64,000 nt of DNA from Bryobacterales bacterium (GTDB lineage Bacteria > Acidobacteriota > Terriglobia > Bryobacterales > UBA6623). The stretch is taken from the NCBI GenBank assembly GCA_965238045.1, contig CBDEGU010000010.1, positions 237,627 to 301,626 on the forward strand, written 5' to 3'. The notes beneath the pieces were generated by a model. It was not told where the DNA came from. It worked only from the letters and a program-made list of their open reading frames with translations, and made no database searches. Positions within the stretch are counted from its first letter, which is position 1. The number at the start of each line of letters is the position of its first letter. Positions 14,268-33,429 of this stretch are shown here, piece after piece. Both the position numbers and the translations under genes were made by a program.

Positions 14268-15479
14268 CTACGCCGTCATCCTAGTTGTTCCGCTCCTGCC
14301 TTGCTGGAGGAGCACTTCCACCTGCTTAGGCTTAACGCCAAGCACTTTTCCTGCCTTGGTTGTTGTGATGGCGCCGGCGCTCACCATTCGCCCAACCAAA
14401 TCAAGTAGAGCCGTTCCGACCCGATGTGCTCTCAGCACGTAGAAGCTTGGCCCCCCTTCCTGCTCACGGGCTCGCTCGCGCTGTTTGAGACGCTGTTGAC
14501 TCCACAAGTCACGAAAAGAGGTGTTGAGACGCAACCACCTGTCCTGGCCAATGGTTCCAGCTCGATAGAGCCTGTACGCAACCATCGTGCTGCTCAGGTT
14601 GCGCTCCTTCGCGAAGTCGCTGATTCGCGCCTGGATCGCTTCCAAGCCGCTCGTATCGTTGAGCGAGAGTTGTTTAAGCTCGTTCGCCGACAAGAGGAAC
14701 TCGCCAGCGACATCGTTACAGAATCGCTCGATTGTGATGCCAGCGCGCTCCCCGCTGACCCCTGTTTGCCCGAGCCAAAGGTGGGCGAGTTCATGGAGGA
14801 GGGTAAAGGACCACGCAGCTCGGGCATCCTGGTCGTTGATGACAACAAATGGAGCTACGTCGTCCGCCAACGCCAGACCCCGGAAAGTCTCAACTCCGAT
14901 TGCGGAGTGGTAGCTTCCGAGGTTTCCGATGAGCAGGACGAACACACCCGCCTTCTCTGTACGATTACGGAGTAGCGCGAAGGCTTCCGCCGGAGACGGC
15001 TGCGCATATAGATCACCTCTGGTTGTCCCTAGGGTATTGCGAATCGACGAGACGACGGCCCGGACACCATCGGACATCGTCATGGACCCAACGAATGTGA
15101 GCAGCAAAGCCTCATCCTCGTCTTCCAATACCGCGCGGACCATGCTTTGGCGCGCGCGGACATCCCGGATCAAGGCGTCCACGAGCGCGTCGTCGGCTGC
15201 TGTGTGGTCGGCGGGCAGTGTGCGAAAGTCCTGTCCGCGGTCGCCGCGCCGGGGCTTGTTGGACATATAAAACGTTACAAGGGGGCGACGGTACTGCTTT
15301 GCCATGCGCAAAAGCATGGGCCGCGTCGGCGCATCCTCGCCTGCCTCTAGGGCGGCCAAGCGGCTGACGGCGGACGAGCCCCGGGCCGGCCGCAATTGAA
15401 CCTTCTTAACAGCCTGCTCTGGCGTGAAGCCTGCTGTCTCACGAGCCCAACGAAGTATGTCTGGGTTGACGCTTGGCAT
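14268..15479 (-). CDS. XRE-type HTH fused to ImmA/IrrE family zinc metallopeptidase
   Basis: 403 aa. N-terminal HTH (LRWARETAGFTPEQAVKKV). HEXXH motif HELAHLWLG. Confidence 0.85.
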   Translation of the reverse strand: MPSVNPDILRWARETAGFTPEQAVKKVQLRPARGSSAVSRLAALEAGEDAPTRPMLLRMAKQYRRPLVTFYMSNKPRRGDRGQDFRTLPADHTAADDALVDALIRDVRARQSMVRAVLEDEDEALLLTFVGSMTMSDGVRAVVSSIRNTLGTTRGDLYAQPSPAEAFALLRNRTEKAGVFVLLIGNLGSYHSAIGVETFRGLALADDVAPFVVINDQDARAAWSFTLLHELAHLWLGQTGVSGERAGITIERFCNDVAGEFLLSANELKQLSLNDTSGLEAIQARISDFAKERNLSSTMVAYRLYRAGTIGQDRWLRLNTSFRDLWSQQRLKQRERAREQEGGPSFYVLRAHRVGTALLDLVGRMVSAGAITTTKAGKVLGVKPKQVEVLLQQGRSGTTRMTA

Positions 15480-15938: not shown

Positions 15939-17168
15939 TATATCGTTTCATTAAACTGTACTCATCTCAGACGCGCTCTCCAGCGGCTCGAACTTCCTCC
16001 AGCGGTGAACGACGGGGGCGGCGTTGATCTCCGCGATCCCCTGCAGGATTCGTTCTCGAAGTTCCTCCCAGGACTCCACCCGGATTCGCTTCAAAAAAGT
16101 GCGCGCCATCTTCCCGAACAGCGTCTCGACAATGTTCAGCCAGGATCCGTGGGTCGGCGTATGCACGTATTTGAAGCGGTTCGGACGCGTCGCCAAATAG
16201 TCCTTCGTCTCCTTGGAAACGTGGGAGGAATGATTATCCAAGATCAATCGGATCGTGCAGTGGGCCGGGTAGGATTGGTCCAGATCCTTGAGCAGTAAGA
16301 TGAATTCCCGGCTGCGGTGGCGCCGCTCCACCCGCGCTGTCACCCGACCGTCGTGCAAGTCCAGCGCCGCCAGAATCGAGCAAGTTCCCAGACGTTTGTA
16401 TTCGTAATCTCGAGCCACGCAGGGATGCCGCCCCGCAGTCGGCGGCAGGTCCGGAGCGGTGTTGGCGATCGCTTGCACGCCGGGCTTTTCGTCGACCGAA
16501 ACCGTAATCACGCCCGGCGATGGGCCGCCCTCGCCCGCGCTTTCATTCTGCAAGGCCACCTCGCGGTAGACCAGCAGCACCTGCCGCATCTTGGACTCAA
16601 AATCCGGGTCGCGGCGCTGCAAGTAGTACTTCACCTTCTCCGGGTGAAGAGGTTGCTCGGCCAGAATCCGATGGACGGTCGCCTTGGCCGCTTGGGCCAA
16701 GGCCGGATAGCCCGCTTCCACGGCATGCTGGCGCACGTGCCGGGCGAGCGCGCCGCGGGTCCAGAGCTCGGCGGCGTAACCGAGTTGCTTGGGTTTGCTA
16801 CAGGCCAAGTGCACCACCCAGGCCTTGGCCTCTTCGCTGATGCGGGGTTCCCGGGGACGATGATAGGCATCCTTGAGCGCCGCTTCCACCCCCATGGCCA
16901 GGGCTCGCTCGATCCATTTGCCAACGCTTTTGCGCGTCATCTTCACGGCCCGCATAATCTCGGCGATCGTCTCGCCGCAATGATAGCGCCACAGAATCTC
17001 GGCTCTCTGCACCTCCCGAGCCGGAGCCTTACGCGAACGACGCAGCCGCTGCAGATGTTGCGACTCTTCGGGCGTGAGAAGCAGTTGGGGACGCTTCGAT
17101 TTTCCTGCCATGCATCCAGCCTAGCAGGAAACATCCTCGTATCGATATGTTTTAATGAAACGCTATAC
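15938..17168 (-). mobile_element. IS630-family insertion sequence (1,231 bp) with TA target duplication
   Basis: IRs gtatatcgtttcattaaa (15938..15955) and the reverse complement of 17151..17168 (gtatagcgtttcattaaa) match 17/18. Flanked by TA at 15936-37 and 17169-70. Confidence 0.85.
15951..17111 (-). CDS. IS630-family DDE transposase
   Basis: 386 aa. N-terminal HTH, then DEKPGVQA...LILDNHSSH...WLNIVE typical of IS630/Tc1-like transposases. Confidence 0.9.
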   Translation of the reverse strand: MAGKSKRPQLLLTPEESQHLQRLRRSRKAPAREVQRAEILWRYHCGETIAEIMRAVKMTRKSVGKWIERALAMGVEAALKDAYHRPREPRISEEAKAWVVHLACSKPKQLGYAAELWTRGALARHVRQHAVEAGYPALAQAAKATVHRILAEQPLHPEKVKYYLQRRDPDFESKMRQVLLVYREVALQNESAGEGGPSPGVITVSVDEKPGVQAIANTAPDLPPTAGRHPCVARDYEYKRLGTCSILAALDLHDGRVTARVERRHRSREFILLLKDLDQSYPAHCTIRLILDNHSSHVSKETKDYLATRPNRFKYVHTPTHGSWLNIVETLFGKMARTFLKRIRVESWEELRERILQGIAEINAAPVVHRWRKFEPLESASEMSTV

Positions 17169-18016: not shown

Positions 18017-19597
18017 CTAGGAGCCTGTCCGAGTATTGGTCATTTTCTTCTTTGAGAAAAAACACAAGTGGGCGATAATGGTTTATGGGAAAAACTTACC
18101 GCCCCTACCTTCCCGAGCAAGAACTGCTGCTGCCTCCTAGTTTGCGCGATTGGCTGCCGGAAAGCCACCTCGTCTACTTCGTCAGCGACGTGGTCGATCA
18201 ACTGGATTTGTCGGCGATCGAGAAGGTCTATGAAAAGGAGTGGCGCGGCCAGCCGCCTTACCATCCGCGGCTGATGGTGAAGCTGCTGCTCTACGGCTAC
18301 TGCCTGGGGGTGCGTTCCTCGCGCAAGATCGCCGAGCGTCTGGTCGAGGACGTGCCTTTTCGGGTGTTGGCGGCCGGCAATCAGCCCGACTTCCGCACGA
18401 TTTCCGACTTTCGCAAGATCCACCTGGAAGCGCTGCACCAGCTGTTCGAGCAGGTGTTGCGGCTGGCGCTGGAAGCCGGGGCGATGAAGCTGGGTCGGGT
18501 GGCGCTGGACGGCACGAAGATGAAAGCCAACGCCTCCAAGCACAAGGCCATGAGTTGGGGGCGGATGAAGCAAACCGAGCAGCAGATTGCCGCCGAGGTC
18601 CAACAGATGCTGACCGAAGCGGAGAGGGCCGATGCCGCCGAGGACGCCCGCTACGGGCCTGAGCAGACGGGCCAGGAGCTGCCCGAGGAGTTGCAGCGCC
18701 GCCAGACGCGGCTGGAAAAGATTCGGCAAGCCCAGAGAGCCCTAAAACAAAGGGCGCGCGACAAAGCGGCCGCCCAAGACCACTCAGCCGACGACGTCCG
18801 CAAAGCGAAGCCGCGCGACAAGGATCAGTACAACTTCAGCGATCCGGAATCGCGCATCATGAAAGGCGGCGACGGGTTCTTGCAGGCCTACAACGCGCAG
18901 GCGGCGGTGGAGGGGGTCTGTCAGTTGATCGTGGGGCAGACGGTGACGCAGGCGGCGAACGACAAACAACAACTGCAGCCGCTGCTCGAAGCGGTCGAGC
19001 AGCAGGCGGGGCAGCGGCCACAACAAGTGTTGGCCGACAGCGGCTATTGTTCGGAGCAGAATCTGCAATCTTTGGAATCGGCCGCCGCGCCGGAGAACAA
19101 GATTGAGGCTTACATCGCCACGAAGAAAGACAAGCACGGGGAGCGGCCACCGCCAGCGAAGCGCGGACCCTTGCGGCGGGGAGCAACGCGGCTGGAGCGG
19201 ATGAAACGCAAATTGCAGACGCGGGCTGGAGCGAAGGTTTACGCCCAACGCAAGGGGATCGTCGAGCCGGTGTTTGGTCAGATCAAACAGGGGCGCGGGA
19301 TGCGAGGGTTTCTCTTGCGCGGGTTGGAGAAGGTGCGCGGCGAATGGGCGTTGATTTGCCTGACGCACAACATATTGAAGATGCACACCCTCTGCCATGG
19401 ATAGCAAGAAGGAAATGCGGTTCGAAGAGTTCGCGGAGGCTTCTGCGGGGCGCGAGAAACTGCTGCCAGGCGGTGTTTGTCCATCCCGCCCGACTTCGAC
19501 CGCCCGAGCCCTGCCTTTGCCGAACGAGTAAATCTCCCGCCGGAAATTCAACCCAGCACCAAAACCGTGCCAAGCTGATACTCGGACGGACTCCTAG
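18017..19597 (+). mobile_element. IS1182/IS5-like insertion sequence (about 1,581 bp), no evident target duplication
   Basis: IRs ctaggagcctgtccgagtat (18017..18036) and the reverse complement of 19578..19597 (ctaggagtccgtccgagtat) match 18/20. Confidence 0.8.
18085..19404 (+). CDS. IS1182-family (IS5-like, DUF772 N-terminus) DDE transposase
   Basis: 439 aa. YHPRLMVKLLLYGYCLGVRSSRKIAE...ALDGTKMKANAS...LADSGY typical of this transposase group. Confidence 0.9.
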   Translation: MGKTYRPYLPEQELLLPPSLRDWLPESHLVYFVSDVVDQLDLSAIEKVYEKEWRGQPPYHPRLMVKLLLYGYCLGVRSSRKIAERLVEDVPFRVLAAGNQPDFRTISDFRKIHLEALHQLFEQVLRLALEAGAMKLGRVALDGTKMKANASKHKAMSWGRMKQTEQQIAAEVQQMLTEAERADAAEDARYGPEQTGQELPEELQRRQTRLEKIRQAQRALKQRARDKAAAQDHSADDVRKAKPRDKDQYNFSDPESRIMKGGDGFLQAYNAQAAVEGVCQLIVGQTVTQAANDKQQLQPLLEAVEQQAGQRPQQVLADSGYCSEQNLQSLESAAAPENKIEAYIATKKDKHGERPPPAKRGPLRRGATRLERMKRKLQTRAGAKVYAQRKGIVEPVFGQIKQGRGMRGFLLRGLEKVRGEWALICLTHNILKMHTLCHG

Positions 19598-19666
19598 GCG
19601 ACCCGGCGCTCCCAGTAGGCGGATCGAGCGATGTTCGTTTCGCGTGCCCTTGGCTTTGGCGTTCAT
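19598..19666 (-). pseudogene. 23-codon 5' fragment of a small gene (Hjc-type resolvase-like N-terminus) cut by the IS1182-like element
   Basis: ATG at 19666. MNAKAKGTRNEHRSIRLLGAPGR resembles the KGxxxER..xxLL..G N-terminus of Hjc-like nucleases. The reading frame runs straight into the IS end at 19597. Confidence 0.3.
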
Positions 19667-19674: not shown

Positions 19675-20088
19675 CTACATGTCTCGGTTGCCCTTGTCGC
19701 CGATGTTGAGCGTGAACTTGAAGTCCTTCTCCGGGGCGTCCTCAGGCCGCTCAGAGTAACCGCGCGATTTGCCCCTCGTCTTCAGGAAAAAGATGATCGC
19801 CGTCAGGTTGCCATCTTCAATCGCGGCCATCAGCTTCGACTCCGCGAAGTCCAGCGCGCTCTCGCGCGCCTCGGACAGCACCTCATCGAGATCCGGGTAG
19901 CGCTTGAGATATTCGTACACCGTTTTCCGGGAGCACGACAAGCTCCTGGCCGCCGTCTCGATCACGCCGTAGGCTTCCGTGAGCGCCTGCGCTACACGGG
20001 CCTCGGTGAACTTGGTTTGCCGACGATCCTTTTTTTGGTAGTGTCTCAGTTTGAATCCAGCAGCCCAATAATTTCTTCGAGCGACCAA
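19675..20088 (-). CDS. terminase small subunit-like HTH protein, 5' end replaced by read-through from the IS1-like element
   Basis: HTH (TAARSLSCSRKTVYEYLKRY) plus LTAIIFFLKTRGKSRGY, as in phage TerS-type proteins. Codons upstream of 20036 lie in the IS inverted repeat. The native SD and GTG sit at 23106..23121 (see findings). Confidence 0.55.
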   Translation of the reverse strand: MVARRNYWAAGFKLRHYQKKDRRQTKFTEARVAQALTEAYGVIETAARSLSCSRKTVYEYLKRYPDLDEVLSEARESALDFAESKLMAAIEDGNLTAIIFFLKTRGKSRGYSERPEDAPEKDFKFTLNIGDKGNRDM

Positions 20089-20879
20089 ACGTGATGCGAA
20101 ACGCCCGCCTCCATCGCCGGAGTCACACGCAGGCTCTTGTGAATCCTCGCGAAGTTGTAGTACATGAAATGAATCGCGACCGCGTGAGCATGGTTCTGGA
20201 TCTTCTTTGAGAATCCGTTGCTCAGGCGCGTGAAGCGGCGCATCGACATTCGCATCGTCAGGTTTTGGCGCTCGATGTAGCTGGTCGAGACGTGTTCCGG
20301 GTCAGGGTTGCCGATCTTCACTTCCCGCTTCGTTCCGTTGACCTTAGGCGGACTGTAGCGCGTCTCCGGCTCGCTTTCGTCCCTTCCGTAGATCTTCTGG
20401 AGCATCGCATAATCGATGTTGCTGCGAAACGCCTCATCGACTGCATCCAGGTAGACCCTGTGGCCGTCGGTGGTGAGTTGCACGCGCTCCGCAAGGCGCG
20501 GGGCTAGGTCCTGCATGAACTCCCACGCGCTGCCCGCGCCACGGTCACCGGTGAACCACGTCGGAATCAGCTTCGTGTCGGCACAAATAGCCGTCCACGT
20601 CCAGACATCACCGAATCCGAACTGGCCGCGCTTGTCCTCAGGGACGTTCTTTTGCTTCGCGTAGCAGAACGACCAAATTTCGTCACACTGAATCCGCTTG
20701 CAGGGCAGGTTTTGCATGACCTCATCCTGATACTTGGCGCAAACGACACCGAGGTCCACAAGCAGCTTCGTGACCGTGTTGATGGAGCAGCCCACCATCC
20801 GGGTCGTCGCCCGCAGGCTACAACCTTCTACGAGGGCTGATACGATCTGGACGCGCTTGGCTGTAGGCAGATTATTCAT
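20046..20879 (-). CDS. IS1-family transposase
   Basis: Start taken at MNNLPTAKRVQIV (ATG at 20879; the track ORF begins at 20930). HTH N-terminus, then DEIWSFCYAKQKN and YIERQNLTMRMSMRRFTRLSNGFSKK, both IS1 InsB-like. Confidence 0.85.
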   Translation of the reverse strand: MNNLPTAKRVQIVSALVEGCSLRATTRMVGCSINTVTKLLVDLGVVCAKYQDEVMQNLPCKRIQCDEIWSFCYAKQKNVPEDKRGQFGFGDVWTWTAICADTKLIPTWFTGDRGAGSAWEFMQDLAPRLAERVQLTTDGHRVYLDAVDEAFRSNIDYAMLQKIYGRDESEPETRYSPPKVNGTKREVKIGNPDPEHVSTSYIERQNLTMRMSMRRFTRLSNGFSKKIQNHAHAVAIHFMYYNFARIHKSLRVTPAMEAGVSHHVWSLEEIIGLLDSN

Positions 20880-21023
20880 ACTGACTATTATGCTTGAGAA
20901 GGACAACAGTGTCAAGATCTTTTTTTTCATACGGTTAGAGAATAAACTTCTTGTTTTTCAACCTCGGATGATGTATCATATCAGGAAGAGAAGACGGCGT
21001 TGGCGTTGGAGAACTAAAACACG

Positions 21024-21686
21024 ATGCAACCATACAGAGTGTACTCTGAAACCATTGAGGCGGCTGGAGAACTTGCAGGACTGGGTCTGACGGAACAGAT
21101 CTTGCTCGATGCTGTGACGGCTGGCCATGAAGCGGCTGCGGCCTCGACTCGGCACCACCCCGCCTCTCATTCAGGATTCGTTATGTGGTCAGAAACGACC
21201 AAGGCGCTCCGGGACCTTCTCACTCCCAAAGGTTGGGAAGCGGAGAACGTAAAGGGTCAACCTCTTGTGGTGAGTCCCGATGCGGCGGTCGCTATCACTG
21301 TTTCCGGTGGCAACGAAGCAACGGGATGCAAGGGGCGGCGGCCCAAGTCAAGTTGTACGAAGGGCTCAGTCACGGTCAACGCCGTTGCGTCCAACGTTCG
21401 GTGGATTCTGCCGGAACTAGAGCAGGCCGAGGTCAAACGCCTCCAGCGTCTAGACAAGCGGGATACCTGGATCTTGCTGGTCCACAGAGATGATCTAGTT
21501 GGCAAGACCCGTAGTGAGTTATCCCGACCCACACAAACCGATGGCAACGGTCGCATCGCGGACTGGTCCGACCGAATACTCCTTCCCGCGATTGATTACG
21601 GCGATACACCGACAGCCGTTGCCCGAGGCGGTAACGAGCCGAACCAGACCGGTGAAATCCGCGTTGAGATCAAGCGTAAGGCTTGA
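21024..21686 (+). CDS. hypothetical protein (passenger gene 1, unknown fold)
   Basis: 220-aa ORF. GGAGA 11 nt upstream. Candidate TTGTTT-17-TATCAT promoter at 20951..20979. Stop is 13 nt before the next start. Confidence 0.6.
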   Translation: MQPYRVYSETIEAAGELAGLGLTEQILLDAVTAGHEAAAASTRHHPASHSGFVMWSETTKALRDLLTPKGWEAENVKGQPLVVSPDAAVAITVSGGNEATGCKGRRPKSSCTKGSVTVNAVASNVRWILPELEQAEVKRLQRLDKRDTWILLVHRDDLVGKTRSELSRPTQTDGNGRIADWSDRILLPAIDYGDTPTAVARGGNEPNQTGEIRVEIKRKA

Positions 21687-21699
21687 AGGGGTACGTCCA

Positions 21700-22788
21700 A
21701 TGTTCAATCCACGACGGCTCTCACTCGCCCGAGAGCGCCGAGGTTTTACTAAGACTGAACTCGCGAGACGGCTAAAGGTATCCACGAGGACTGTGACGGC
21801 GTGGGAATCAGGAGAGTTCACTCCTTCAGCGACCGTTCTGAGGCGGTTATCTGGCGTGCTCGACTTTCCGGTCGAGTTCTTTGCCGGTGAGCATTTGGAA
21901 ACCATCGCAACGGACACGGTCAGTTTCCGCTCGATGACGAAGATGACAGCGGCACAACGAGGCATGGCATTAGCGCAGGGTTGCTTGGCCGTCCACCTTG
22001 CTAAATGGCTCGATGAACGTTTTGAGTTACCAACATCATCTATCCCCGACCTTAGTCACGAAAGAGACGCTGAAGCTGCTGCTGAGACGCTTAGACAGTC
22101 TTGGGGCCTCGAACAGCTTTGTATCCAGAACATGATTCACTTTCTGGAGGCGAAGGGTGTACGGGTTTTCTCGCTCGGCATCCAGAGCAGGGAGGTTGAT
22201 GCCTTCTCGACTTGGAAAGGCGAAACTCCCTTTGTCTTCTTGAACAGCTTCAAGTCCAGTGAGCACGGTCGTTTCGATGCAGCCCATGAGTTAGGCCACT
22301 TGGTGCTCCATAGGCATGCCGGTCCCAGCGGCCACGAAGCCGAGCGCCAAGCGAACAGATTCGCGGCTGCATTCCTCATGCCGCGAGGTGATGTCCTAGC
22401 GGAAGCGCCGCGAAGGGTCACGATCAACGGGCTAATTGGTCTGAAGTCTCGCTGGATTGTCTCACTCAGTGCTTTAACTCGCAGACTTCACGAAGTAGGC
22501 ATCCTTAGCGACTGGCAGTATAGGAGCGCGTGTGTCGAGATCTCCAAGCGTGGCTATCGCACTCACGAGCCGCATGAGGCAGTTCGCGAACGCTCACTAG
22601 TCTTATCGGAGATGCTTAGCTATCTTTATCGAGAGGAGGGGGTGACGCGGGCAGCCATTGCCCGCGATCTCGCTATCAGTGTTCAGGAGTTAGAGGAAGC
22701 CCTTTTCGGGTTGGTGCTAACCGTTGTTTCTGGTGGGAGGCGGGGCGCACCAAGGGGACCAACACCAAGACTGGCTAGAGTCAAGTAA
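21700..22788 (+). CDS. XRE-type HTH fused to ImmA/IrrE family zinc metallopeptidase (passenger gene 2)
   Basis: Start at ATG 21700 (MFNPRRLSLARERRGFTKTELARRLKVSTRTVTAWESG). HEXXH motif HELGHLVLH. The track ORF start at 21499 overlaps the upstream gene and is unlikely. Confidence 0.85.
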   Translation: MFNPRRLSLARERRGFTKTELARRLKVSTRTVTAWESGEFTPSATVLRRLSGVLDFPVEFFAGEHLETIATDTVSFRSMTKMTAAQRGMALAQGCLAVHLAKWLDERFELPTSSIPDLSHERDAEAAAETLRQSWGLEQLCIQNMIHFLEAKGVRVFSLGIQSREVDAFSTWKGETPFVFLNSFKSSEHGRFDAAHELGHLVLHRHAGPSGHEAERQANRFAAAFLMPRGDVLAEAPRRVTINGLIGLKSRWIVSLSALTRRLHEVGILSDWQYRSACVEISKRGYRTHEPHEAVRERSLVLSEMLSYLYREEGVTRAAIARDLAISVQELEEALFGLVLTVVSGGRRGAPRGPTPRLARVK

Positions 22789-23026
22789 GCCAACGCTTCT
22801 CTGCAGCCTTCTTAGCGATCTTCCGACGCTCTTCGGCTGTCAGTTTGTTCGCGCGCGCCTTTCCGCCTTTCTGTCCACCGAGGCGACCACGGGCAACAGC
22901 TCTAGGGTCCTTGCCCTCGTTATCAGGCTCGTCCGCAACTTCACCCGCCGCGATATCAACGATCAGCTTGGCGCGTTCGTTTATGTCCCGTGGGCGCTTG
23001 GGCTTGCCGGGTCGGTTCGCCATCAC
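22781..23026 (-). CDS. small basic protein (passenger gene 3), GGKARA...KAAxKRW C-terminus
   Basis: 81-aa ORF converging on the ImmA-like gene with 8 nt of overlap. Lys/Arg-rich. No assignable family. Confidence 0.5.
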   Translation of the reverse strand: MMANRPGKPKRPRDINERAKLIVDIAAGEVADEPDNEGKDPRAVARGRLGGQKGGKARANKLTAEERRKIAKKAAEKRWLT

Positions 23027-23105
23027 CCATCATTGTTGCACGTCGGAGCCGACCGGCCCAGCGCTACTGGATTCAAACTGCGACACTACCCTTTTTTTTA
23101 GCTGT

Positions 23106-23121
23106 CACTTCTGTTACCTCC
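23106..23121 (-). promoter_or_regulatory. orphaned Shine-Dalgarno (GGAGGT) plus GTG start of the terS-like gene
   Basis: The minus strand reads GGAGGT-aacagaa-GTG ACA GCT A.., immediately outside the right IS inverted repeat and TSD. It is in frame with 20028 downward after in-silico excision. Confidence 0.5.
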
Positions 23122-23323
23122 AATGTGCTGTGTCCAGCGTGCGCGGGTGGCCATGCTGGCGCTCTGACTGCGTTCGGCAGGGGTGAGCCTCGCGGCTGTG
23201 GCAAGCCCGCCGATGCGTCCCGCGATCTGTCTTGAGACTCTCATGGTTCTGCCGGCACAGGATCGCGCTGCGGCGATGTATGGCCGCCTTCCAGCAATTT
23301 GATCCTCCCCCTTAGATAGTCAC

Positions 23324-24151
23324 TTACAGGCCCCGAAGAGCATTCACAAGCTGCTCTTTCTCCTGGTGTTCCTTTTCTTTGACTTGACTCAAAGCCCCCA
23401 AATCAAGCCGTGACTCCACCTCTTGTCTCAGCCGATCGGTCAGAACATCCATCGGCAACGCATCTAGCTCGACCGAGATGTCACCATATCGCGCAACGAA
23501 TGCCGCACTGCGGGTGTCCTTCTTCTTGGTGAAGTCTGTGGGTAGCTTGTATCTGCCAACGTCGTCAAACGTCAGGGCGCATTTGACGATTGGCGGGCGA
23601 CACTCGAAGAAGTCCAAACGCTCCTGAAGACTCCGCACCATGTCTTCTCCGCTCGGGTCGAAGTCCCCGAAGTAGAGTACAGATACTGGCTTCCGGCAGG
23701 CCATGAACCGGCGAGCAGCGTTCCGAATCGAGTCCCAGCCGTCAAATCCGCGACCAACGTTCAACGTCACGCCATATTCTTCAAGCACGTCTTCAAAGAT
23801 GCCCGAGAGCGCATCTTTCTCCAACCATGCCTCAATGTACGCGGGCTGAGTGCTCCACACATTCCGCCGGTACGCTGATCTCACAGTTTCCGCGAAGTCA
23901 CCCAGCCCATCCCACATTGAGACGGCGCGGGGACGACGAAGCCGGTCTTCAATCCACGCCCACGGAATCACTCCTTCTTGGCGGGCGTTCACAAGCGCCT
24001 TGCTGAGCGCTTGATATCGTCCCCGGTTGTTTTCTAGGACTTGTCTAGAAACAAGCTGGTAGTAGACTTGGCGTACTGTCATGGGGTGGTGCTCTGTCAG
24101 CACGAGCCTAGCCTCTTCGATCAAGCGGATCGTTTTGGCGTGCCTACTCAT
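23324..24151 (-). CDS. Spo11/Topo VI subunit A-like protein (5Y-CAP + Toprim), short MGE-type
   Basis: Start at ATG 24151 (MSRHAKTIRL). TVRQVYYQLV (RxxYY catalytic-Tyr motif), WLEKDAL (Toprim Glu) and LYFGDFDPSGEDM (DxD). Confidence 0.75.
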   Translation of the reverse strand: MSRHAKTIRLIEEARLVLTEHHPMTVRQVYYQLVSRQVLENNRGRYQALSKALVNARQEGVIPWAWIEDRLRRPRAVSMWDGLGDFAETVRSAYRRNVWSTQPAYIEAWLEKDALSGIFEDVLEEYGVTLNVGRGFDGWDSIRNAARRFMACRKPVSVLYFGDFDPSGEDMVRSLQERLDFFECRPPIVKCALTFDDVGRYKLPTDFTKKKDTRSAAFVARYGDISVELDALPMDVLTDRLRQEVESRLDLGALSQVKEKEHQEKEQLVNALRGL

Positions 24152-24251
24152 CAGTCGGTTTTCCCCTGCGTCGCTGGCTCTGCCTTCTCGGCGCGCTTGT
24201 TGCGCACACCACCTGCCGGGGGTGTGTCTAAAATGCCACACTCTACAGTCA

Positions 24252-24968
24252 TCAGCTAGCCTCGAAACCGAACCGCGTCCAGGTGAGCGTGAAACTTCGC
24301 TCCTGGGCCGCGCGGTTCTTGAACTGGCGAATACAGATAGTGCGATCGGCCACCCGGTCAATTCGGCACGCGATATCCGGGGCCGCCTCGATTTCCGTCG
24401 CGCCCCGGAAGTTCTTCTCCGATCCCTTCCCGGTGTGGTGGAGCACAACAACCGTTGCGCCATTGCGAGCGAGAGCAACGAAGCTGTCCATCACCCGCGC
24501 CATTTCCGTGTTGTCGTTTTCGTTGCCGTGGTGAAACCGGATCAAGCTATCGAAGATCAGCAGGGGCCTGACGGCTTCCGCGTAGTCGAGCAGTTCCTTC
24601 GCCCCGATACCGACGAACGGGAGGGCGCACCAGCGCCCCCAATACCTGAGCTTCGGCGTGTCGGGAATACCGAGAATCTCCCGCCGATGGGCGATGAGGT
24701 TAGGGCCGTTCTCTTGGTCGACATAGAGCACTTCACGGGCCGCGCTGCCGCCCATCTGGGCAAAGGCCTGCCCGAGCGCTACGGCGCGTGCTAGGTCTAG
24801 CGCCAGCCAGCTCTTGTACGTTCCCGGTTTCCCCACGAACAGCACGAAGGACCCCACCGGAATGAACTCCTCAATGAGCCAGCTCACCGGCTCGTACTTG
24901 ATATCCGCGAGCGTGGGAATGCGGGACCACCACGGGAGCGACGTGAAGGCATGGCGGCCGGTCTTCAT
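24252..24968 (-). CDS. RecA-fold AAA ATPase (RepA/AAA_25-like replicative helicase-type)
   Basis: 238 aa. Walker A GKPGTYKS, Walker B LLIFDSL. 4-nt overlap with the upstream gene. Confidence 0.8.
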   Translation of the reverse strand: MKTGRHAFTSLPWWSRIPTLADIKYEPVSWLIEEFIPVGSFVLFVGKPGTYKSWLALDLARAVALGQAFAQMGGSAAREVLYVDQENGPNLIAHRREILGIPDTPKLRYWGRWCALPFVGIGAKELLDYAEAVRPLLIFDSLIRFHHGNENDNTEMARVMDSFVALARNGATVVVLHHTGKGSEKNFRGATEIEAAPDIACRIDRVADRTICIRQFKNRAAQERSFTLTWTRFGFEAS

Positions 24969-25597
24969 AGCCCTTGAACCTCCGCCCGGAAATCATGGTC
25001 GCCGTAAAGCCCCCGCAAGAACGGCTCGATCGCGAAGGACGGGTCCGCGTGGAGCTTCACCAGTTGCTCGTCGATAAGCGCCATCCCAACATGGGCACTG
25101 GTTATCGCCGCGTGAACGGCATCTACCTTCGCCCGGTCGATATCGTCGGAGTTGAAGAACTCTTCGAGAAAGGCCAGGTTCGCCGTTTGCTGATCGCCGA
25201 GAAATTGCCAGTCCGCAAATAGCCGCGCTTTTTTCAGAGCCAGCCAACGATCGAAAGACCGTACCTCCGCGTCGCTCAGCTTCGCCGCCAACGACGGCGC
25301 TTCGTAGGCGTCGTGACTGTCAAACGGAACACCGGCGATGCCCGCGAGACGGCGGAGCGCGCCGCGAAAGCTGAGCCCCTCGGCTAGTTCGAGAAACGAG
25401 ATGACATCGCCGCCCTTCCCGCAACCGAAGCAATGCCACAAGCCCAATTCGTTGACACTGAAGCTCGGGGTCTTCTCGTTGTGGAAGGGGCACAGGCCCG
25501 CGTGCCGCTTGCCGACCTTGCGCAACCGGACGTATCGGCCGACTACTTCAACGGGACTCACCGCTGCCTTCAACTCGTGTGCTGAGATCATTCCCAA
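24965..25597 (-). CDS. DnaG-type CHC2 zinc-finger protein (primase N-terminal domain only)
   Basis: 210 aa. CPFHNEKTPSFSV...WHCFGCGKGGDVISF. No Toprim/RNA-polymerase domain is recognisable after the finger. Confidence 0.8.
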   Translation of the reverse strand: MGMISAHELKAAVSPVEVVGRYVRLRKVGKRHAGLCPFHNEKTPSFSVNELGLWHCFGCGKGGDVISFLELAEGLSFRGALRRLAGIAGVPFDSHDAYEAPSLAAKLSDAEVRSFDRWLALKKARLFADWQFLGDQQTANLAFLEEFFNSDDIDRAKVDAVHAAITSAHVGMALIDEQLVKLHADPSFAIEPFLRGLYGDHDFRAEVQGL

Positions 25598-26415
25598 CTC
25601 CTTTTGAAGCCGTCGCTGTTCTGTGCGGCGACCTCCGGTTCCTGGTTCCAGAGCCCTTTGCTGAAGTAGCGCTGAACGTGCGGCAACGATTCGGCGAATG
25701 CGCCGCGCGCCTTCATTCGCTCAATGTGGCTCACCCGGATTGCTAGGTACTGGCCGGCTAGCTCGATATCGTCGTCTGACACGACGACCTTTGACGCTTG
25801 CTTGAAGGCGGGTTTCTTGGCTCCCTTCCGCGATGGGTACGAAGCCCAGAAACGCTCAAACCAGCCAGGGTAAGAACCGTTCTTGGCTGGTCGAAATTCA
25901 ACGCTTTTCACAGTGTATTTCTTATTCAACTTCTTAGGCGTCTCTAAGCCGTTGATATGAAGCTGTTTAGGTATGTCTAGCGGTCCGGGTAATGGTCCGA
26001 ATTCCGGACCGGTAGATATAGGTAGCGGTCCGCTCTCCGGACCGGTAGAACGGGGCTCTAGCGGCGCGGAAGTCGGACCGGTAGAATGGGGCTCTACTGG
26101 TACGGATTTGGGAATAGTAAAACGGTCGAAGCGCAACACCCGATACGTGGTCAGGCCGTGCCGGTTGCTCGCCCGTTCGACTTCAATAAACGGCTTCGGT
26201 GATAGACCTTCCAGCTCTTTGATTGCGCTCAGCATAGACTCTCGACGCATCCCAAGTTCTTCAGACAGTGCCCGCGTGGTAGCCCTGCAAGTACCCCGAT
26301 CCGCGCCCTTCCATTCGACTCGCAAGAGCAGATAGACGTACACCTTGACCGCGTTCGCCGAGAGGCGCGGAAGGTGCTCCCGCAATCCCCTCCGCAGCAT
26401 CAGAAAGCCGGGCAC
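25588..26415 (-). CDS. winged-helix replication initiator-like protein with internal STGP repeats
   Basis: 275 aa. N-terminal wHTH (AVKVYVYLLLR...TTRALSEELGMRRESMLSAIKELE). Central STGPxxxPL x3. C-terminal FERFWASYPSRKGAKKPA motif seen in phage/plasmid replication proteins. Confidence 0.7.
   Translation of the reverse strand: MPGFLMLRRGLREHLPRLSANAVKVYVYLLLRVEWKGADRGTCRATTRALSEELGMRRESMLSAIKELEGLSPKPFIEVERASNRHGLTTYRVLRFDRFTIPKSVPVEPHSTGPTSAPLEPRSTGPESGPLPISTGPEFGPLPGPLDIPKQLHINGLETPKKLNKKYTVKSVEFRPAKNGSYPGWFERFWASYPSRKGAKKPAFKQASKVVVSDDDIELAGQYLAIRVSHIERMKARGAFAESLPHVQRYFSKGLWNQEPEVAAQNSDGFKRSWE
26005..26085. repeat. three direct CGGACCGGTAGA repeats (iteron-like) inside the initiator gene
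   Basis: 12-mers at 26005..26016, 26038..26049 and 26074..26085 (spacing 33 and 36 nt). Inverted CGGTCCG cores at 25981..25987 and 26026..26032. Confidence 0.5.
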
Positions 26416-26418
26416 GGT

Positions 26419-26730
26419 TCAAACCGCCTCCTCCCGGTGCATCTCAATAAGGGCGTCCAAGTCGCGAACGTCGATGAGCACCCGGCGGATAACCCGACCA
26501 TCCCGAGCACGCGGGCACGGCAATTTCACGGTCGGCAACGTACCAGCAAAGACAAGGTCGCGAGTTGTCCAGTACGACAGCCCTAGGTAGCGACCAGCCG
26601 CGTGCAGGTCGAGCAGGCGGGGTGGGAGGGCGGCTTTACCCGCGTCCGTTGCCCCGCTATTCATGCGGGCTTCCGCGTCCGCTGCGCGTGTATTGGTATG
26701 GTCTGGGGTCGTTTCTGGATTGGTGGGCAT
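26419..26730 (-). CDS. excisionase/AlpA-type HTH DNA-binding protein
   Basis: 103 aa. LLDLHAAGRYLGLSYWTTRDLVFAGTLPTVKL...IDVRDLDALIE typical of the HTH_17/excisionase family. Confidence 0.7.
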   Translation of the reverse strand: MPTNPETTPDHTNTRAADAEARMNSGATDAGKAALPPRLLDLHAAGRYLGLSYWTTRDLVFAGTLPTVKLPCPRARDGRVIRRVLIDVRDLDALIEMHREEAV

Positions 26731-26773
26731 TGACTTCCTCTAGTGTTCAGTGTTATCGTACATCAGAATCAAT

Positions 26774-27796
26774 ATGACGTTAAATATGAGACCGGACGCA
26801 ACGCACACCCAAGCAAAAGTCGCCGGAATCGCCATTGAGGGAGCGGACCTTGCGGTCCGCGCAGATCGTCATCTTTCATACCTGGTCCCGAGTGAGATCG
26901 CCGTCGTTTCTGCAAGCGAATTACGAAGTCCGGTGATTACTAAACCCGGCCCGAAATGGCTTGCATGGCCGTGGGTCAAAGATGACGGCCAGGTTCTTAC
27001 CTATAGGTGGGTTGATCTCGATCGCGTCTCCCCTCGTAAGGGGAAATGCCTTGAGGCATTCATCCGGCTAGCGGGCGTCCGGGCAGACGGGTTTCCACAG
27101 GCAGTTTTGGGTTTTGCGAAACGCTGGGGTCCGCTCGAAATCTGCAAACATCGCAAGCCTCAAAACCACAGCGATCCAGTCTACCCGCCCTGCGGGAGCA
27201 GCAGAATGGGTAGCGGCGGCATGGGCACTGAACCGGTTGAAGCATGGCGAAGGTACTCCCGGCAGTTACGGGCCATCCTGCGGGTTGCCGCGAACCTCTA
27301 TCAGGGGAGGCCCGGCGATAGGGCGGACTGGGCCAATGTCGAGCGAGGCGAACCAGAGGGAATCTCCGCAGAAGACCGCCATTACTGGGGTCCGGGAAAG
27401 ATTGCCGGGAAGCTTATTCACGAGCGGCAGACAATCGCACTGGCCCTGAGACAATGGTTCCGCTATGGCCAAGTCGGGTTGTCACCGCAGTGGCTCATGC
27501 GGCGAGATACGAAGGAACACTGGTTTGAGATTCAGACAGAGTATTGGGGGTTGACCGGGAGGCTGGCGGTCGATTTGGCGGCCGCGCTCTGCTCACCAAA
27601 TGGACTATATCGCTGCGCTGGCTGCGGTCGACCCTTCACCCCGGAGTCCAGAAAACGTTCACGCGACCGCGAGAAGTGGTGCGATTCACAGGAATGCAAG
27701 CTAGAGCAGGATCGCCGGAACTCCAGGAGGTACTACGTCCGGAAGTCCGAGGCAAAACCGAAGCAACGCAAGACAGCCAAGAAAGGAGAAGCCTGA
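26774..27796 (+). CDS. hypothetical protein with CGNR-like C-terminal zinc finger
   Basis: ATG at 26774 preferred over the 26750 alternative. C-terminus YRCAGCGRPF...REKWCDSQEC...RRNSRRYY. The stop TGA directly abuts the integrase ATG (TGAATG). Confidence 0.55.
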   Translation: MTLNMRPDATHTQAKVAGIAIEGADLAVRADRHLSYLVPSEIAVVSASELRSPVITKPGPKWLAWPWVKDDGQVLTYRWVDLDRVSPRKGKCLEAFIRLAGVRADGFPQAVLGFAKRWGPLEICKHRKPQNHSDPVYPPCGSSRMGSGGMGTEPVEAWRRYSRQLRAILRVAANLYQGRPGDRADWANVERGEPEGISAEDRHYWGPGKIAGKLIHERQTIALALRQWFRYGQVGLSPQWLMRRDTKEHWFEIQTEYWGLTGRLAVDLAAALCSPNGLYRCAGCGRPFTPESRKRSRDREKWCDSQECKLEQDRRNSRRYYVRKSEAKPKQRKTAKKGEA

Positions 27797-28984
27797 ATGG
27801 GATCAATCTATCGGCGAAAGTGGAAGGACAAAAACGGCAACGTCCGGGAGTCCGATGTTTACTGGATCAAGTACTACAGCGATGGCCGGCCGATGCGGGA
27901 AAGCTCGGAAGGCACGAAGGAATCCGACGCGAGGAAACTCCTCAAGCTCCGCGAAGGGGAAGTAGTTAAGGGCGTGCCCGTCATGCCGAAGCGGGTTCGC
28001 TTTAGCGAGCTGGCGGAAGACGTTGTGAATGACTACAGGGTGAACGGGAGGCGCTCGCTCCGAGACTTGGAAATGCGGCTTCGCCGTCACGTGCTGCCGT
28101 TCTTCGGACACCGCCGGGCCGCGTCCATCTCCAAGGCCGACGTGAACCGATTCATCTTGAAGCGCCTAGGGGAAGGCGCATCCAACGGCGAGATCAACCG
28201 CGAATTGGCCCATGTCAAGAGAGCATTTTCTCTCGCCATTGATGACGAGAAAGTACTGCATCAGCCCAAGGTGTCGATGCTGCAAGAAAACAACGTTCGG
28301 AAAGGATTCTTCGAGCGGGAGCAATTCGACGCGGTACGGCGCTGCCTGCCCGAACATCTTCGGCGCGTCCTCACCTTCGCCTACGTCACGGCGTGGCGCG
28401 TGCCTAGCGAGGTGCTCACGCTCAAGTGGAGCCAAGTAGACTTCCGGGGCGCGACTGTTTCCCTGGAGCCCGGCACGACCAAGAATGACGAGGGCCGCGT
28501 GTTTCCGTTCACTGACGAACTACGGGACGCCCTCACAGAGCAGCGCCGGTTCACCGATGAAACACAGCGACGACTCCGCGCCGTCATTCCGTGGGTGTTC
28601 CATCGAGCCGACGGGAAGCGCATTGTGGGCTTCCGTAAGGCATGGGCGCGCGCCTGCTACAACGCCGGTCTGCCCTGCCACGTCGAGACCGAGACAGGGA
28701 AGGACGGCAAGGTCCGAATCAAGAAAATTCAAGCCGTCCACATACCGCATGATCTCCGGAGAAGCGGCGTGCGTAACTTGGTTAGGGCCGGTGTTTCCGA
28801 GACGGTCGCTATGACTTTGTCCGGCCACAAGACCCGCTCCGTTTTCGACCGATACAACATCGTCAGTGAGGCCGACCTGAAAGACGCGGCCCGGCGTCTC
28901 GACGCGTTCCAAACCGGCCCGGCCGCAAATACGGGCACGAATGCGGGCACAATGACGGCTTCCGCTGCGAGAGTGAAAAGCTAA
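27797..28984 (+). CDS. int: tyrosine recombinase / phage-type integrase
   Basis: 395 aa. N-terminal SAM-like arm region. C-terminal HDLRRSGVRNLVRAGV...LSGHKTRSVFDRYNI (H-x-x-R ... H ... Y). Confidence 0.9.
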   Translation: MGSIYRRKWKDKNGNVRESDVYWIKYYSDGRPMRESSEGTKESDARKLLKLREGEVVKGVPVMPKRVRFSELAEDVVNDYRVNGRRSLRDLEMRLRRHVLPFFGHRRAASISKADVNRFILKRLGEGASNGEINRELAHVKRAFSLAIDDEKVLHQPKVSMLQENNVRKGFFEREQFDAVRRCLPEHLRRVLTFAYVTAWRVPSEVLTLKWSQVDFRGATVSLEPGTTKNDEGRVFPFTDELRDALTEQRRFTDETQRRLRAVIPWVFHRADGKRIVGFRKAWARACYNAGLPCHVETETGKDGKVRIKKIQAVHIPHDLRRSGVRNLVRAGVSETVAMTLSGHKTRSVFDRYNIVSEADLKDAARRLDAFQTGPAANTGTNAGTMTASAARVKS

Positions 28985-28997
28985 GTTGTTGAAAGAA

Positions 28998-29073
28998 TGG
29001 AGCCACGGGTCGGAGTCGAACCGACGACCTGCGGTTTACGAAACCGCTGCTCTGCCAACTGAGCTACCGTGGC
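28998..29073 (-). tRNA. tRNA-Thr (anticodon CGU), CCA encoded
   Basis: The reverse complement folds by hand into a cloverleaf: GCCACGG/CCGTGGC acceptor, GCTC/GAGC D stem, GCGGT-TTCGTAA-ACCGC anticodon arm (CGT), GTCGG-TTCGACT-CCGAC T arm, then T-CCA. Confidence 0.95.
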
Positions 29074-29171
29074 CTTCGAGGGCTTACTGTACCAGTATTT
29101 TACCAGGGCGAGCCGCGCCACGCCCGCGGCAATTCTCTCACTCTTGGAGTGAAAACCCGCCCGACCCGAAC

Positions 29172-29358
29172 CCGCATTTCTCACCACGTGGCGACCGAAG
29201 CGCATGAGAGGCCCGCCATTCCTTCGTTGCGCTTGCTCGCCGTGCTCAACGTACTGTCAAGTACGCCTGCGCTCGTCAAGCGGCACGCGCCTCCCGCTGA
29301 CGTGCCTCTCACGCACTTCGCCCCTCCACTTCACCGGGCCACGTGGTGAGAAAAGCGG
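29172..29358. repeat. MITE-like structured repeat, copy 1 (187 bp)
   Basis: Terminal inverted repeats ccgcatttctcaccacgtggc (29172..29192) and 29338..29358 match 20/21. A 62-bp core is identical to copy 2. Contains nested palindromes (cgtactgtcaagtacg). Confidence 0.7.
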
Positions 29359-29436
29359 GCTAAGCCCGCTTCTCCGCCCCTTCTCCCGCACCCGCCGGCA
29401 AGCTCCCATGGCGTGCGCGCTTGCCATAATGGGTCC

Positions 29437-30297
29437 ATGCTCGTCATCGACACGCACGCGCATCTGTACTCGCCCGATGAAACGCGTTACCCGCCCCGGC
29501 CCAATCCCGCCCGCCCGCCGCAAGGCACCGGAACCATCGAGCACCTGCGGCGCGAGATGAAGAGCAACGGCGTCGACGGCATCTGCGCCGTCCAGGTCGG
29601 AGGGTTCTACCGCTTCGACAACCGTTTTATCTGCGATGTGTCCAAGGCGCATCCCGATTGGATCGCGGGGATTTGCACGTTTGATCCCAACGATCCGCAC
29701 AGCCCCGGACTTCTCGCCCAGTTTGCCCGCGACTACGGCATCCGCGGGATGCGAAGCGTCGTCGCCGCCGGCCGCCAGCTTGATCATCCGGGCGTGCGCG
29801 CGCTGTGGAAAACCGCGCTTGCAAACGATATCGTGATCAACTTGCTGATCGGCCACGAGTTGGCCGGCCAGGCCAGCCGTCTGCTGGCGGACTTCCCCGA
29901 ACTGCCCGTCGCCCTCGACCACACTCTGGGACTCCGGACCGGCGGGCCGGTCAAGGAAACATTAGCGGCGCTGCGAACCCTCGCGCGGCACAAGAACTGT
30001 CACACGAAAATCTCTTTCATCGCCAACGGCCCGCAAGGCTGTGCCGGCGGCTATCCGTGCCAGAGCTTCCACTCCGTTGTGATGGACGTCATTGATCTTT
30101 TCGGCCCCGAGCGCTGTGCCTGGGGCGCCCATTTCCCGCTAGAAAAATTCTCGCCCGCGCTTACCTACGCCCAGCACCTGCGCATCTTCAGCGAAGTGCT
30201 CCCGCTCTCGAGCGAAGCCAGGGCGGCCATACTGGGCGGCACCGCCCGTCGTCTCTATTTCCGGGGAACCAATCTCCAAGACCGCAACGCGCCCTAA
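29437..30297 (+). CDS. amidohydrolase-2 family (TIM-barrel metal-dependent hydrolase)
   Basis: Start at MLVIDTHAHLY (ATG 29437). LDH motif near FPELPVALDH. Confidence 0.8.
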   Translation: MLVIDTHAHLYSPDETRYPPRPNPARPPQGTGTIEHLRREMKSNGVDGICAVQVGGFYRFDNRFICDVSKAHPDWIAGICTFDPNDPHSPGLLAQFARDYGIRGMRSVVAAGRQLDHPGVRALWKTALANDIVINLLIGHELAGQASRLLADFPELPVALDHTLGLRTGGPVKETLAALRTLARHKNCHTKISFIANGPQGCAGGYPCQSFHSVVMDVIDLFGPERCAWGAHFPLEKFSPALTYAQHLRIFSEVLPLSSEARAAILGGTARRLYFRGTNLQDRNAP

Positions 30298-30344
30298 TCG
30301 CGTGCGCTAGCGGGTGCGCGTCGCCGCCCCATGCCCGACCTAGC

Positions 30345-30517: not shown

Positions 30518-30519
30518 AC

Positions 30520-33339: not shown

Positions 33340-33429
33340 TTCCGTGCAAGCGCCGCCTTCGGTCCCGAAGCCAGCACGAGGGCCAGCCCCGAAGTCAGCA
33401 GCGCGGCCAAACATCCGAAGGAGCATCCA

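Follow-up and report, generated by a model that had tools for sequence, protein, structure and literature searches.

The DNA analysed here, hereafter the window, is a stretch of 64,000 nt of Bryobacterales bacterium (assembly GCA_965238045.1, contig CBDEGU010000010.1, positions 237,627-301,626 of the forward strand), and our subject is a unit at its positions 20037-23090 that resembles an insertion sequence (IS). The unit encodes a transposase, a toxin-antitoxin (TA) pair of the Rosmer type (rmrT and rmrA) and a small basic protein, the product of the open reading frame (ORF) that we call ORF4, and it lies in the first codons of a gene similar to those for the small subunit of phage terminase (terS-like gene). 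It measures 3,054 bp, has 56.3% G+C against 61.2% for the window, and together with its immediate flanks comprises the following features, where L001, L004 and L166 are loci in other assemblies described below.

20029-20036, no strand: left copy of the target-site duplication, CTTTTTTT, identical to the 8-mer at 23091-23098 and present as a single copy in L166
20037-20064, no strand: terminal inverted repeat at the transposase end, GGTAGTGTCTCAGTTTGAATCCAGCAGC, 26/28 identical to the other arm
20046-20879, minus strand: transposase gene (tnp), 277 aa, with an N-terminal helix-turn-helix (HTH) and the residues D66, D138 and E203; a distant IS1-family DDE enzyme
20880-21023, no strand: divergent tnp-rmrT intergenic region, holding both differences from L001 and the recombination breakpoint of L004
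20887-20915, minus strand: candidate sigma-70-like promoter, TTGACA-17-CATAAT, 11/12, found by consensus scan only
21024-21686, plus strand: rmrT, Rosmer toxin component, 220 aa, cargo (PADLOC RmrT PDLC03935, E 1.3e-54)
21700-22788, plus strand: rmrA, Rosmer antitoxin/regulator, 362 aa, cargo (PADLOC RmrA PDLC03949, E 3.3e-144)
22781-23026, minus strand: ORF4, a gene of the IS lineage for a basic protein of 81 aa, on the transposase strand, 64 nt inside the far inverted repeat
23063-23090, no strand: terminal inverted repeat at the ORF4 end, 26/28 identical to the other arm
23091-23098, no strand: right copy of the target-site duplication, CTTTTTTT, identical to the left 8-mer

The ends of the unit are defined by terminal inverted repeats: 20037-20060 (GGTAGTGTCTCAGTTTGAATCCAG) and the reverse complement of 23067-23090 are identical at 23 of 24 positions, and the match stretches to 26/28 across 20037-20064 and 23063-23090. 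With up to 3 mismatches allowed, the 24-mer has only these 2 sites in the window and gave 0 matches in 100 dinucleotide-preserving shuffles of it. The 8-mer CTTTTTTT abuts both arms on the outside, and the target duplication is exactly 8 bp, since the outer neighbours differ (C at 20028, T at 23099). A preliminary reading made from the letters alone, the sequence-only reading, had delimited a 3,054-bp unit by 23/24 repeats and an 8-bp duplication; this delimitation is borne out, with the repeats extended. The ends, GGTAGTG...CAGTTTGA, recur in relatives of the element belonging to several phyla.

Other copies of the whole unit, whose search that reading had advised, do exist. The exact-protein look-up of the 362-aa ORF led to a second copy (L001, ENA ERZ26166282 contig_52), again of 3,054 bp and 99.93% identical, located between clpB and a DsbH-like gene with an 8-bp duplication of its own, GAGATTTT. 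Of the 3,054 bp only 2 positions, 20886 and 20934, distinguish the two copies, and both fall between tnp and rmrT. The copies very probably come from one organism, because another contig of sample ERZ26166282, contig_49, matches positions 27038-38984 of the window at 100% identity. A third copy (L002), from a different sample, is 3,047 bp long with 98.7% nucleotide identity and a duplication matching at 7/8; it is set in an island with a type I restriction-modification system, AbiE and other IS genes. As the unit is present elsewhere with its own duplications, the right-hand repeat is neither a solo IS end nor a miniature inverted-repeat transposable element (MITE).

Excision in silico of the unit with one copy of the duplication gives, on the minus strand, GGAGGT-AACAGAA-GTG ACA GCT AAA AAA AAG GAT CGT CGG in an open frame of 123 codons, confirming by computation the junction proposed earlier, in which a Shine-Dalgarno (SD) sequence and a start codon are restored in frame. 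The restored protein, used as a search query, retrieved P0121, a protein of 123 aa that is 94% identical and has the N-terminus MTAKKKDRRQTKF. Its locus, L166, is a natural empty site: it reads ...GGAGGTAACAAAAGTGACAGCTAAAAAAAAGGATCGTCGG... (junction stretch CACATTGGAGGTAACAAAAGTGACAGCTAAAAAAAAGGATCGTCGGCAAACC), contains the 8-bp target once, and is without all four IS genes. The sequence-only reading had staked its case on what such a site would look like, and the site found equals the predicted junction save one single-nucleotide polymorphism (SNP) in the spacer between SD and start. At window positions 59531-60981 there is an IS256-family (Transposase_mut) element that is 99.3-99.8% identical to two copies in L166, which suggests that L166 is from a closely related genome. 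With three copies at different sites and an empty site, the unit moves as a whole. The insertion in the window appears to be recent, judging from the 2/3,054 differences between copies, the perfect duplication and the target frame still open. Filled site, empty site and sister copy together make it a fully documented insertion event.

The cargo is a two-gene operon in which rmrT, co-oriented with rmrA, ends 13 nt upstream of it. Residues 10-219 of RmrT match positions 9-206 of the 207 of the PADLOC profile; the protein has no relative in Pfam, a sequence search of the PDB gave chance-level matches only, its single-sequence AlphaFold model has a predicted local distance difference test score (pLDDT) of 33, and no transmembrane segment is evident by eye in this subtype, PDLC03935. 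RmrA combines an XRE-type HTH (Pfam HTH_3, 1.7e-11) with a zinc peptidase domain of the ImmA/IrrE type (Peptidase_M78, 9.6e-25) carrying HELGH (HExxH) at residue 196, and it is assigned by NCBIfam to the spr1629-family repressor/antitoxins (E 2e-41). RosmerTA systems associate diverse toxins with an ImmA-protease antitoxin and have phage-defence activity; membrane depolarisation and protection against coliphages are reported for one member (PMC10440598), and the pneumococcal member Spr1630/1629 targets the sliding clamp (bioRxiv 10.1101/2025.09.02.673660). The operon follows the Rosmer plan, an RmrT-family toxin and then RmrA with XRE HTH and M78 HExxH peptidase, but differs from described Rosmer systems in being embedded in an insertion sequence. 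Three passenger ORFs had been counted at first; two of them, rmrT and rmrA, are indeed cargo, whereas the third, 22781-23026 (ORF4), is a conserved gene of the IS itself. Outside the IS, in the same IS-rich region, positions 14268-15479 (minus strand) encode a 403-aa Peptidase_M78 (ImmA/IrrE) protein, which could be another regulator or antitoxin, Rosmer-like or PD-Lambda-2-like.

Insertion sequences that transport passenger genes, transporter IS (tIS), are a known category (PMC7986276, PMC9330008), and TA pairs are known in the Tn3 family (PMC9330008). In our case both cargo genes are enclosed by the repeats in each of three copies, which occupy different sites and have their own duplications, and the empty site is without both, as expected of a tIS. 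We thus consider it very probable that 20037-23090 is one autonomous tIS, belonging to a distant branch of the IS1 family, which carries rmrTA and has recently inserted in the terS-like gene.

The target gene and the integrative element to which it belongs are represented in the window by the following features.

23091-23121, minus strand: severed 5' end of the terS-like gene, with SD GGAGGT at 23121-23116, GTG at 23108-23106 and codons 1-6, VTAKKK
19675-20028, minus strand: body of the terS-like gene, codons 7-123, frame open, 94% aa identity to the intact P0121
19675-20088, minus strand: putative hybrid ORF, 137 aa, in which the terS-like body continues in frame from 19 residues encoded by the IS
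27797-28984: tyrosine integrase of the host element, ending 14 nt from tRNA-Thr
28998-29073, minus strand: tRNA-Thr(CGT), marking one end of the host integrative element
18085-19404, plus strand: IS1182/IS5-like transposase (DUF772 and DDE_Tnp_1), directly downstream of the terS-like gene
15951-17111: IS630-like element, inserted in the same host element

The insertion, at codons 4-6, cut the terS-like gene off from its SD and start codon, and the 117 remaining codons are uninterrupted. Apart from one SNP in the spacer, the severed 5' end has the sequence with which the intact orthologue of L166 begins. The hybrid ORF starts at 20088 with TTG, not with the ATG reported in the sequence-only reading, and it is preceded by no obvious SD. 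The label terS-like, also taken from that reading, is justified by homology and synteny: the restored protein matches PHROG profiles of terminase small subunit (phrog_309, E 4.9e-10; phrog_4044, E 2.3e-6) and has 235 relatives among IMG/VR contigs, and in the viral contigs L099, L107, L118, L133 and L145 a homologue of 111-130 aa is located directly upstream of, and overlaps the start of, an ORF of 386-474 aa with a Walker A motif, which in L099 and L118, the two scanned with Pfam, matches Terminase_6N and Terminase_3. Neither in the window nor in L166 is the terS-like gene followed by a large terminase subunit gene (TerL); here it may be of satellite type or an orphan. Other genes of the host element are those for a replication initiator, a CHC2 primase, an AAA_25 helicase-like protein (24252-24968, with no records in the exact-protein look-up) and a phrog_6247 protein, and the element is either satellite-like or a decaying prophage.

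This raises the question of whether the insertion was functionally fresh, as it may have struck a host element in which decay was already under way and the terS-like gene no longer needed. Such a history, which is compatible with a recent tIS insertion because it concerns the consequence and not the mechanism, seems to us unlikely, while deserving serious attention. It would agree with the two further IS insertions immediately downstream, with the missing TerL, with the lack of any repeat of tRNA-Thr of the att type (at least 13 nt) elsewhere in the window, so that the far end of the host element may be lost, and with the related element of locus L164, which carries an IS21 instead. On the other hand, the duplication is perfect, the copies of the unit differ at 2/3,054 positions, and the remnant of 117 codons is uninterrupted and 94% identical to the intact orthologue.

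Some further observations concern the same host element. The gene at 19283-19666 (minus strand; MNAKAKGTRNEHRS...) adjoins the terS-like gene and is conserved in L166 only to about window position 19619, so that a second IS insertion appears to truncate it. The two ORFs of 439 aa at 2370-3689 and 18085-19404 were considered as copies of one IS, an idea dropped when self-BLAST found no similarity between them. L164 is a 99.8% relative of window 23373-38976 and was examined as an empty site, but was rejected, as its homology to the window reaches only to 23373, within the 3' end of the gene for the phrog_6247 protein, beyond which come an IS21 (IstA/IstB, L164 3147-5407) and unrelated DNA; different IS have thus remodelled one element in different samples.

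The transposase gave access to relatives of the unit. A scan of 185,579 species genomes yielded 80 loci, 50 of them with a full-length transposase, the closest being in metagenome-assembled genomes of Bryobacterales. Between the ORF4-like gene and tnp these relatives hold from 120 bp to ~2.5 kb of DNA, whose content was established by clustering and by Pfam and PADLOC scans:

L003, L004, L009, L021 and L028: Rosmer variants, with three further RmrT profile types
12 loci: HTH-M78 protein (PD-Lambda-2_B) and a partner of ~160 aa, sometimes with a HigB-like toxin
L010, L036 and L043: P63C-domain proteins
L059: HEC-04 AAA_15/21 ATPase
L045: Schlafen/AlbA_2 protein and ClpP
L046: nSTAND/AAA_16 NTPase
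L042: ClpP-like SDH protease
L018: aspartyl protease and DUF5678
L010, L025 and L026: nested IS

Several slots hold ORFs without a recognised family. By a crude count, cargo ORFs of at least 90 aa are antisense to tnp in 55 cases and co-oriented in 14. Whole units, from inverted repeat through ORF4, cargo and transposase to inverted repeat, with perfect 8-bp duplications were recognised in L005, L007, L012, L023, L025, L033, L010, L028 and L038, and a unit of 1,342 bp with ORF4 and tnp between the repeats, a perfect 8-bp duplication and no cargo in L024. Three more are on complete plasmids of cultured Alphaproteobacteria:

Mesorhizobium loti p_1: unit of 3,370 bp, duplication CGCTGGTG, ORF4 annotated 'histone H1'
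Acidiphilium multivorum plasmid: unit of 2,634 bp, duplication AAGCCGAG
Hoeflea sp. IMCC20628 plasmid NZ_CP011481.1 (L169), positions 1555-5778: unit of 4,224 bp, duplication GATGATTG

The Hoeflea unit shows that cargo is not confined to the slot between ORF4 and tnp: its Rosmer-like cargo is co-oriented with tnp, and the stretch from the transposase to the right repeat contains two further ORFs, of 60 and 201 aa. For about half of the more distant relatives, a search of the 140 nt next to the transposase stop turned up no right-end repeat, and some of these may carry extra DNA downstream of tnp, as the Hoeflea unit does. Exchange of cargo can be followed among the nearest relatives: L003 has a transposase 90% identical to that of the window element, yet a different Rosmer subtype, and in L004 the nucleotide identity is 97% over rmrT-rmrA-ORF4 but falls to 80% over tnp, the breakpoint lying in the region of the tnp promoter. 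On the evidence of these comparisons, cargo is swapped between close relatives of the element. The lineage is not notably phage-borne, since no more than 3 relatives of the transposase were found in viral contigs.

ORF4 is convergent with rmrA, with an overlap of 8 nt. In 46/50 loci with a full-length transposase, hidden Markov model (HMM) search and tblastn revealed an ORF4-like gene that lies upstream of tnp and shares its strand; where the repeat could be mapped, this gene typically starts 55-100 nt inside it. Since it is present in these relatives and in the cargo-less L024, ORF4 is a conserved gene of the IS lineage and not cargo; it is also kept in the units on plasmids of isolates. The family, characterised by the motifs KRPRD.NQLAK.IVDIATGE and GR.GG.KGGKARA..L..E.R.EIA.KAA.ARW, comprises 4,135 clusters at 50% identity (E<=1e-10) and is unannotated, its members being 'hypothetical' in the databases, or 'histone H1' in one Mesorhizobium plasmid record. 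ORF4 belongs to no Pfam, NCBIfam or PADLOC family; its AF2 model consists of three helices with pLDDT 81, with no Foldseek match in the PDB, where a sequence search also gave no match at E<=10. From position and conservation, we propose that ORF4 may be a DNA-binding accessory or regulator of transposition, similar to InsA in position, though not its homologue.

The alternative, namely that ORF4 is a third passenger (for example serving the cargo systems as a regulator or as their third component) and no part of the transposition machinery, appears improbable. In its favour, ORF4 converges on rmrA with overlapping ends, and its C-terminal motif, GG.KGG.AR...L..E.R..IA..AA..RW, recurs at the N-termini of P63C cargo proteins and also, outside the unit, in a 48-aa ORF. 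Against this, ORF4 accompanies the transposase whatever the cargo (Rosmer, PD-Lambda-2-like, P63C, HEC-04, Schlafen/ClpP, STAND or unknown), it is consistently repeat-adjacent and on the transposase strand, it is retained when there is no cargo, and in the mosaic L004 it stays with the repeat end.

The 48-aa ORF just mentioned (23098-23244, minus strand; phrog_2384, E 0.004) lies directly upstream of the terS-like gene and carries the ORF4 C-terminal motif as GG...A..LTPAERS....A..ARW; the P63C-domain proteins with this motif as N-terminus are those of L010 and L036. The motif common to ORF4, the 48-aa ORF and the P63C proteins may be a widespread DNA-binding module of mobile genetic elements.

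The single IS1-type transposase recognised earlier at the left end is related to IS1 by HMM, by profile and by alignment with InsB. IS1 is the top-scoring family in both NCBIfam and Pfam, and among the more than 8,000 homologues of the transposase many are named IS1 family transposase (JGI, NCBI, PGAP) or carry PF03400. An hhalign comparison of a profile of 25 homologues with InsB1 of Escherichia coli MG1655 (IS1A) gave a probability of 89.6% and E 1.9e-6, pairing CDEIW with MDEQW, TTDGH with MTDGW and IERQNLTMR with IERHNLNLR, with D66, D138 and E203 aligned; the motif IER(H/Q)NL..R...FSK is common to the profile and InsB, and BLASTP against InsB gave E 1e-5 in the region of the glutamate. 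Across the 25 homologues D66 is invariant, and D138 and E203 nearly so. IS1-family elements have inverted repeats of ~20-30 bp starting GGnnnTG, here GGTAGTG with 26/28 matches, and duplications of 8-9 bp; the duplication is of 8 bp in this element, as it is in at least 13 insertions that relatives have made independently.

The start of this transposase had been placed at 20930. The candidate promoter ends 8 nt upstream of the ATG at 20879 and lies within the longer ORF from 20930, and for this reason we favour the ATG at 20879, which gives 277 aa. The exact-protein look-up of a 294-aa form of the ORF returned no records. The difference sites 20886 and 20934 fall in the divergent tnp/rmrT promoter region, and one of them adjoins the predicted -10 box of the tnp promoter.

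Compared with IS1A, the element has a homologous DDE core, with the triad and IERxNLxxR...FSK aligned, repeats of ~25 bp starting GGTnnTG (GGTAGTG here, GGTAATG and GGTGATG in IS1A), a transposase stop codon falling inside the repeat, and a short target duplication of fixed length. It differs in its size (3,054 bp with cargo against 768 bp), in having one transposase ORF with an N-terminal HTH of its own instead of the InsAB' frameshift fusion, in ~40 extra residues between the second aspartate and the glutamate (spacing 64 against 24), and in duplications of 8 bp where those of IS1A are mostly of 9 bp. The ISMhu11 subgroup, of which this element is a possible member, has single-ORF transposases and sizes up to several kb, with passenger genes in some members. 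The single ORF, the ~40 extra residues, the lack of InsA and the 8-bp duplications, together with scores under the curated IS1 thresholds and weaker matches to IS6 (26.8 bits), IS1595 (18.7 bits) and DDE_Tnp_IS240, would suit a superficial likeness to IS1 in an element of another DDE family (IS1595 or IS6) or of a new one. We hold this to be quite improbable, given the top scores of IS1 in both libraries, the alignment of catalytic triad and motif to InsB, ends of the form GGT(A/G)(A/G)TG as in IS1A, and the IS1 family names of homologues. The available comparisons support the filing of transposase and element as a distant branch of the IS1 family.

There is next to no probability that a ~1-kb IS1-like element stands by chance beside native ORFs, with the right-hand 24-mer as a solo IS end or MITE: plausible a priori in a region so rich in IS (IS630-like at 15951-17111, IS1182/IS5-like at 18085-19404) and with no other support found, this arrangement is refuted by the same unit in the unrelated context of L001 with its own duplication, by the third copy in another sample, by the empty site without the four genes, and by the lack of a second repeat near the transposase start.

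Returning to the tIS of a distant IS1 branch, its behaviour can be proposed as follows. The 277-aa DDE transposase would recognise the ~28-bp inverted repeats starting GGTAGTG, presumably via its N-terminal HTH by analogy with the IS1 family, and would make staggered cuts 8 bp apart in the target, inserting the whole unit of 3,054 bp. The two conserved IS genes are on one strand, with ORF4 just inward of one repeat and the transposase ending in the other, and between them is a cargo slot whose genes are on the opposite strand. In the slot, rmrT and rmrA would supply a toxin and an antitoxin/regulator with HTH and M78 protease, which by analogy with the Rosmer literature may form an autoregulated abortive-infection module of the TA type, protecting the host from phage. 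ORF4 might be the element's own InsA-like regulator or an architectural factor. The copy in the window has inserted into codons 4-6 of the terS-like gene of an integrative element linked to tRNA-Thr. As the TA pair would penalise loss of the element, its retention and spread should be favoured. IS1 yields both simple insertions and cointegrates, and two near-identical copies in one genome would fit a copy-generating pathway.

Several points weigh against this interpretation. The IS1 score in NCBIfam (NF033558; E 1.5e-14, 54.4 bits) is below the cut-off of 100 and that of DDE_Tnp_IS1 in Pfam (PF03400; 22.6 bits) is below 24.1, so that the IS1 placement rests on remote homology. Moreover, the element has a single ORF of 277 aa with no frameshift arrangement of the InsAB' type, and no InsA homologue, ORF4 reaching an hhalign probability of 0.1% against InsA. 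The expression and toxicity of rmrTA and protection by it in this host are assumed from the Rosmer analogy, and the mode of transposition, replicative or conservative, copy-in or cut-and-paste, is extrapolated from IS1. The proposed function of ORF4 derives from its position and conservation, the structure search having given no analogue. Finally, the host element bears other IS insertions and is without TerL, for which reasons the terS-like gene may already have been dispensable.

Beyond this locus, the relatives lead us to a tentative proposal, which we regard as falling somewhat short of an even chance: a widespread and undescribed IS1-related lineage, present in Acidobacteriota, Chloroflexota, Omnitrophota, Desulfobacterota, plasmids of Alphaproteobacteria and others, would share the order inverted repeat, ORF4, antisense slot, tnp, inverted repeat; the slot would preferentially hold compact anti-phage modules of the TA type, and recombination in the conserved flanks would swap them. 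In the literature searched, which did not extend to a comparison with ISfinder, we found no account of an IS1-family element that has, besides tnp, a small conserved gene next to the far repeat, nor of a defined slot for cargo or of defence/TA cargo in this family.

Defence systems travel on phages, satellites, integrative and conjugative elements and large transposons of the Tn7 and Tn3 types. Tn7-like transposons carrying defence cargo were reportedly described by Benler et al. in 2021. As in Tn7-like and Tn3-family transposons, a defence or TA module moves with the element; those, however, are large, multi-gene and driven by unrelated machineries (TnsABC; TnpA and resolvase), while here we have a two-gene IS of 1.3 kb with a slot of 1-2.5 kb. 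The defence hotspots of P2/P4-type phages and satellites are variable loci between conserved flanking genes, and the unit is similar to them in having variable defence cargo between two conserved genes and module exchange among relatives, with the difference that the carrier is an insertion sequence and not a phage or satellite.

Two other regions of the window contain repeats. Positions 53405-61503 are occupied by long internal repeats of 83-96% identity overlapping ORFs of 704-908 aa (for example 54312-55955 with 57039-58673, and 56798-57329 with 60971-61503), which look like tandem paralogous large genes. A direct repeat of ~163 bp (29159-29321 and 30333-30494, 89.6%), with an inverted partial copy of 95 bp at 61778-61872, could be a MITE-like element or one resembling repetitive extragenic palindromes (REP).

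If the proposed lineage is real, it would be the smallest autonomous vehicle for defence systems, and the ORF4 family, with its more than 4,000 unannotated clusters, would be a new transposition accessory factor; this large family of 81-aa proteins now has, in any case, a testable context. An IS with a core of ~1.3 kb and a defence/TA slot of 1-2.5 kb would be far smaller than the known carriers and also more promiscuous; with it a complete defence operon can move within a genome, as the two copies found here indicate, and between replicons, for example the plasmids of Alphaproteobacteria. Annotation pipelines split such units into unrelated genes, and recognition of repeats and architecture would improve the annotation of both IS and defence islands. 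Carrying a TA-like module may also make the IS more stable, which would be a mutualism between selfish element and cargo, and the lineage could help to explain the scatter of small TA-type defence modules over genomes and phyla.

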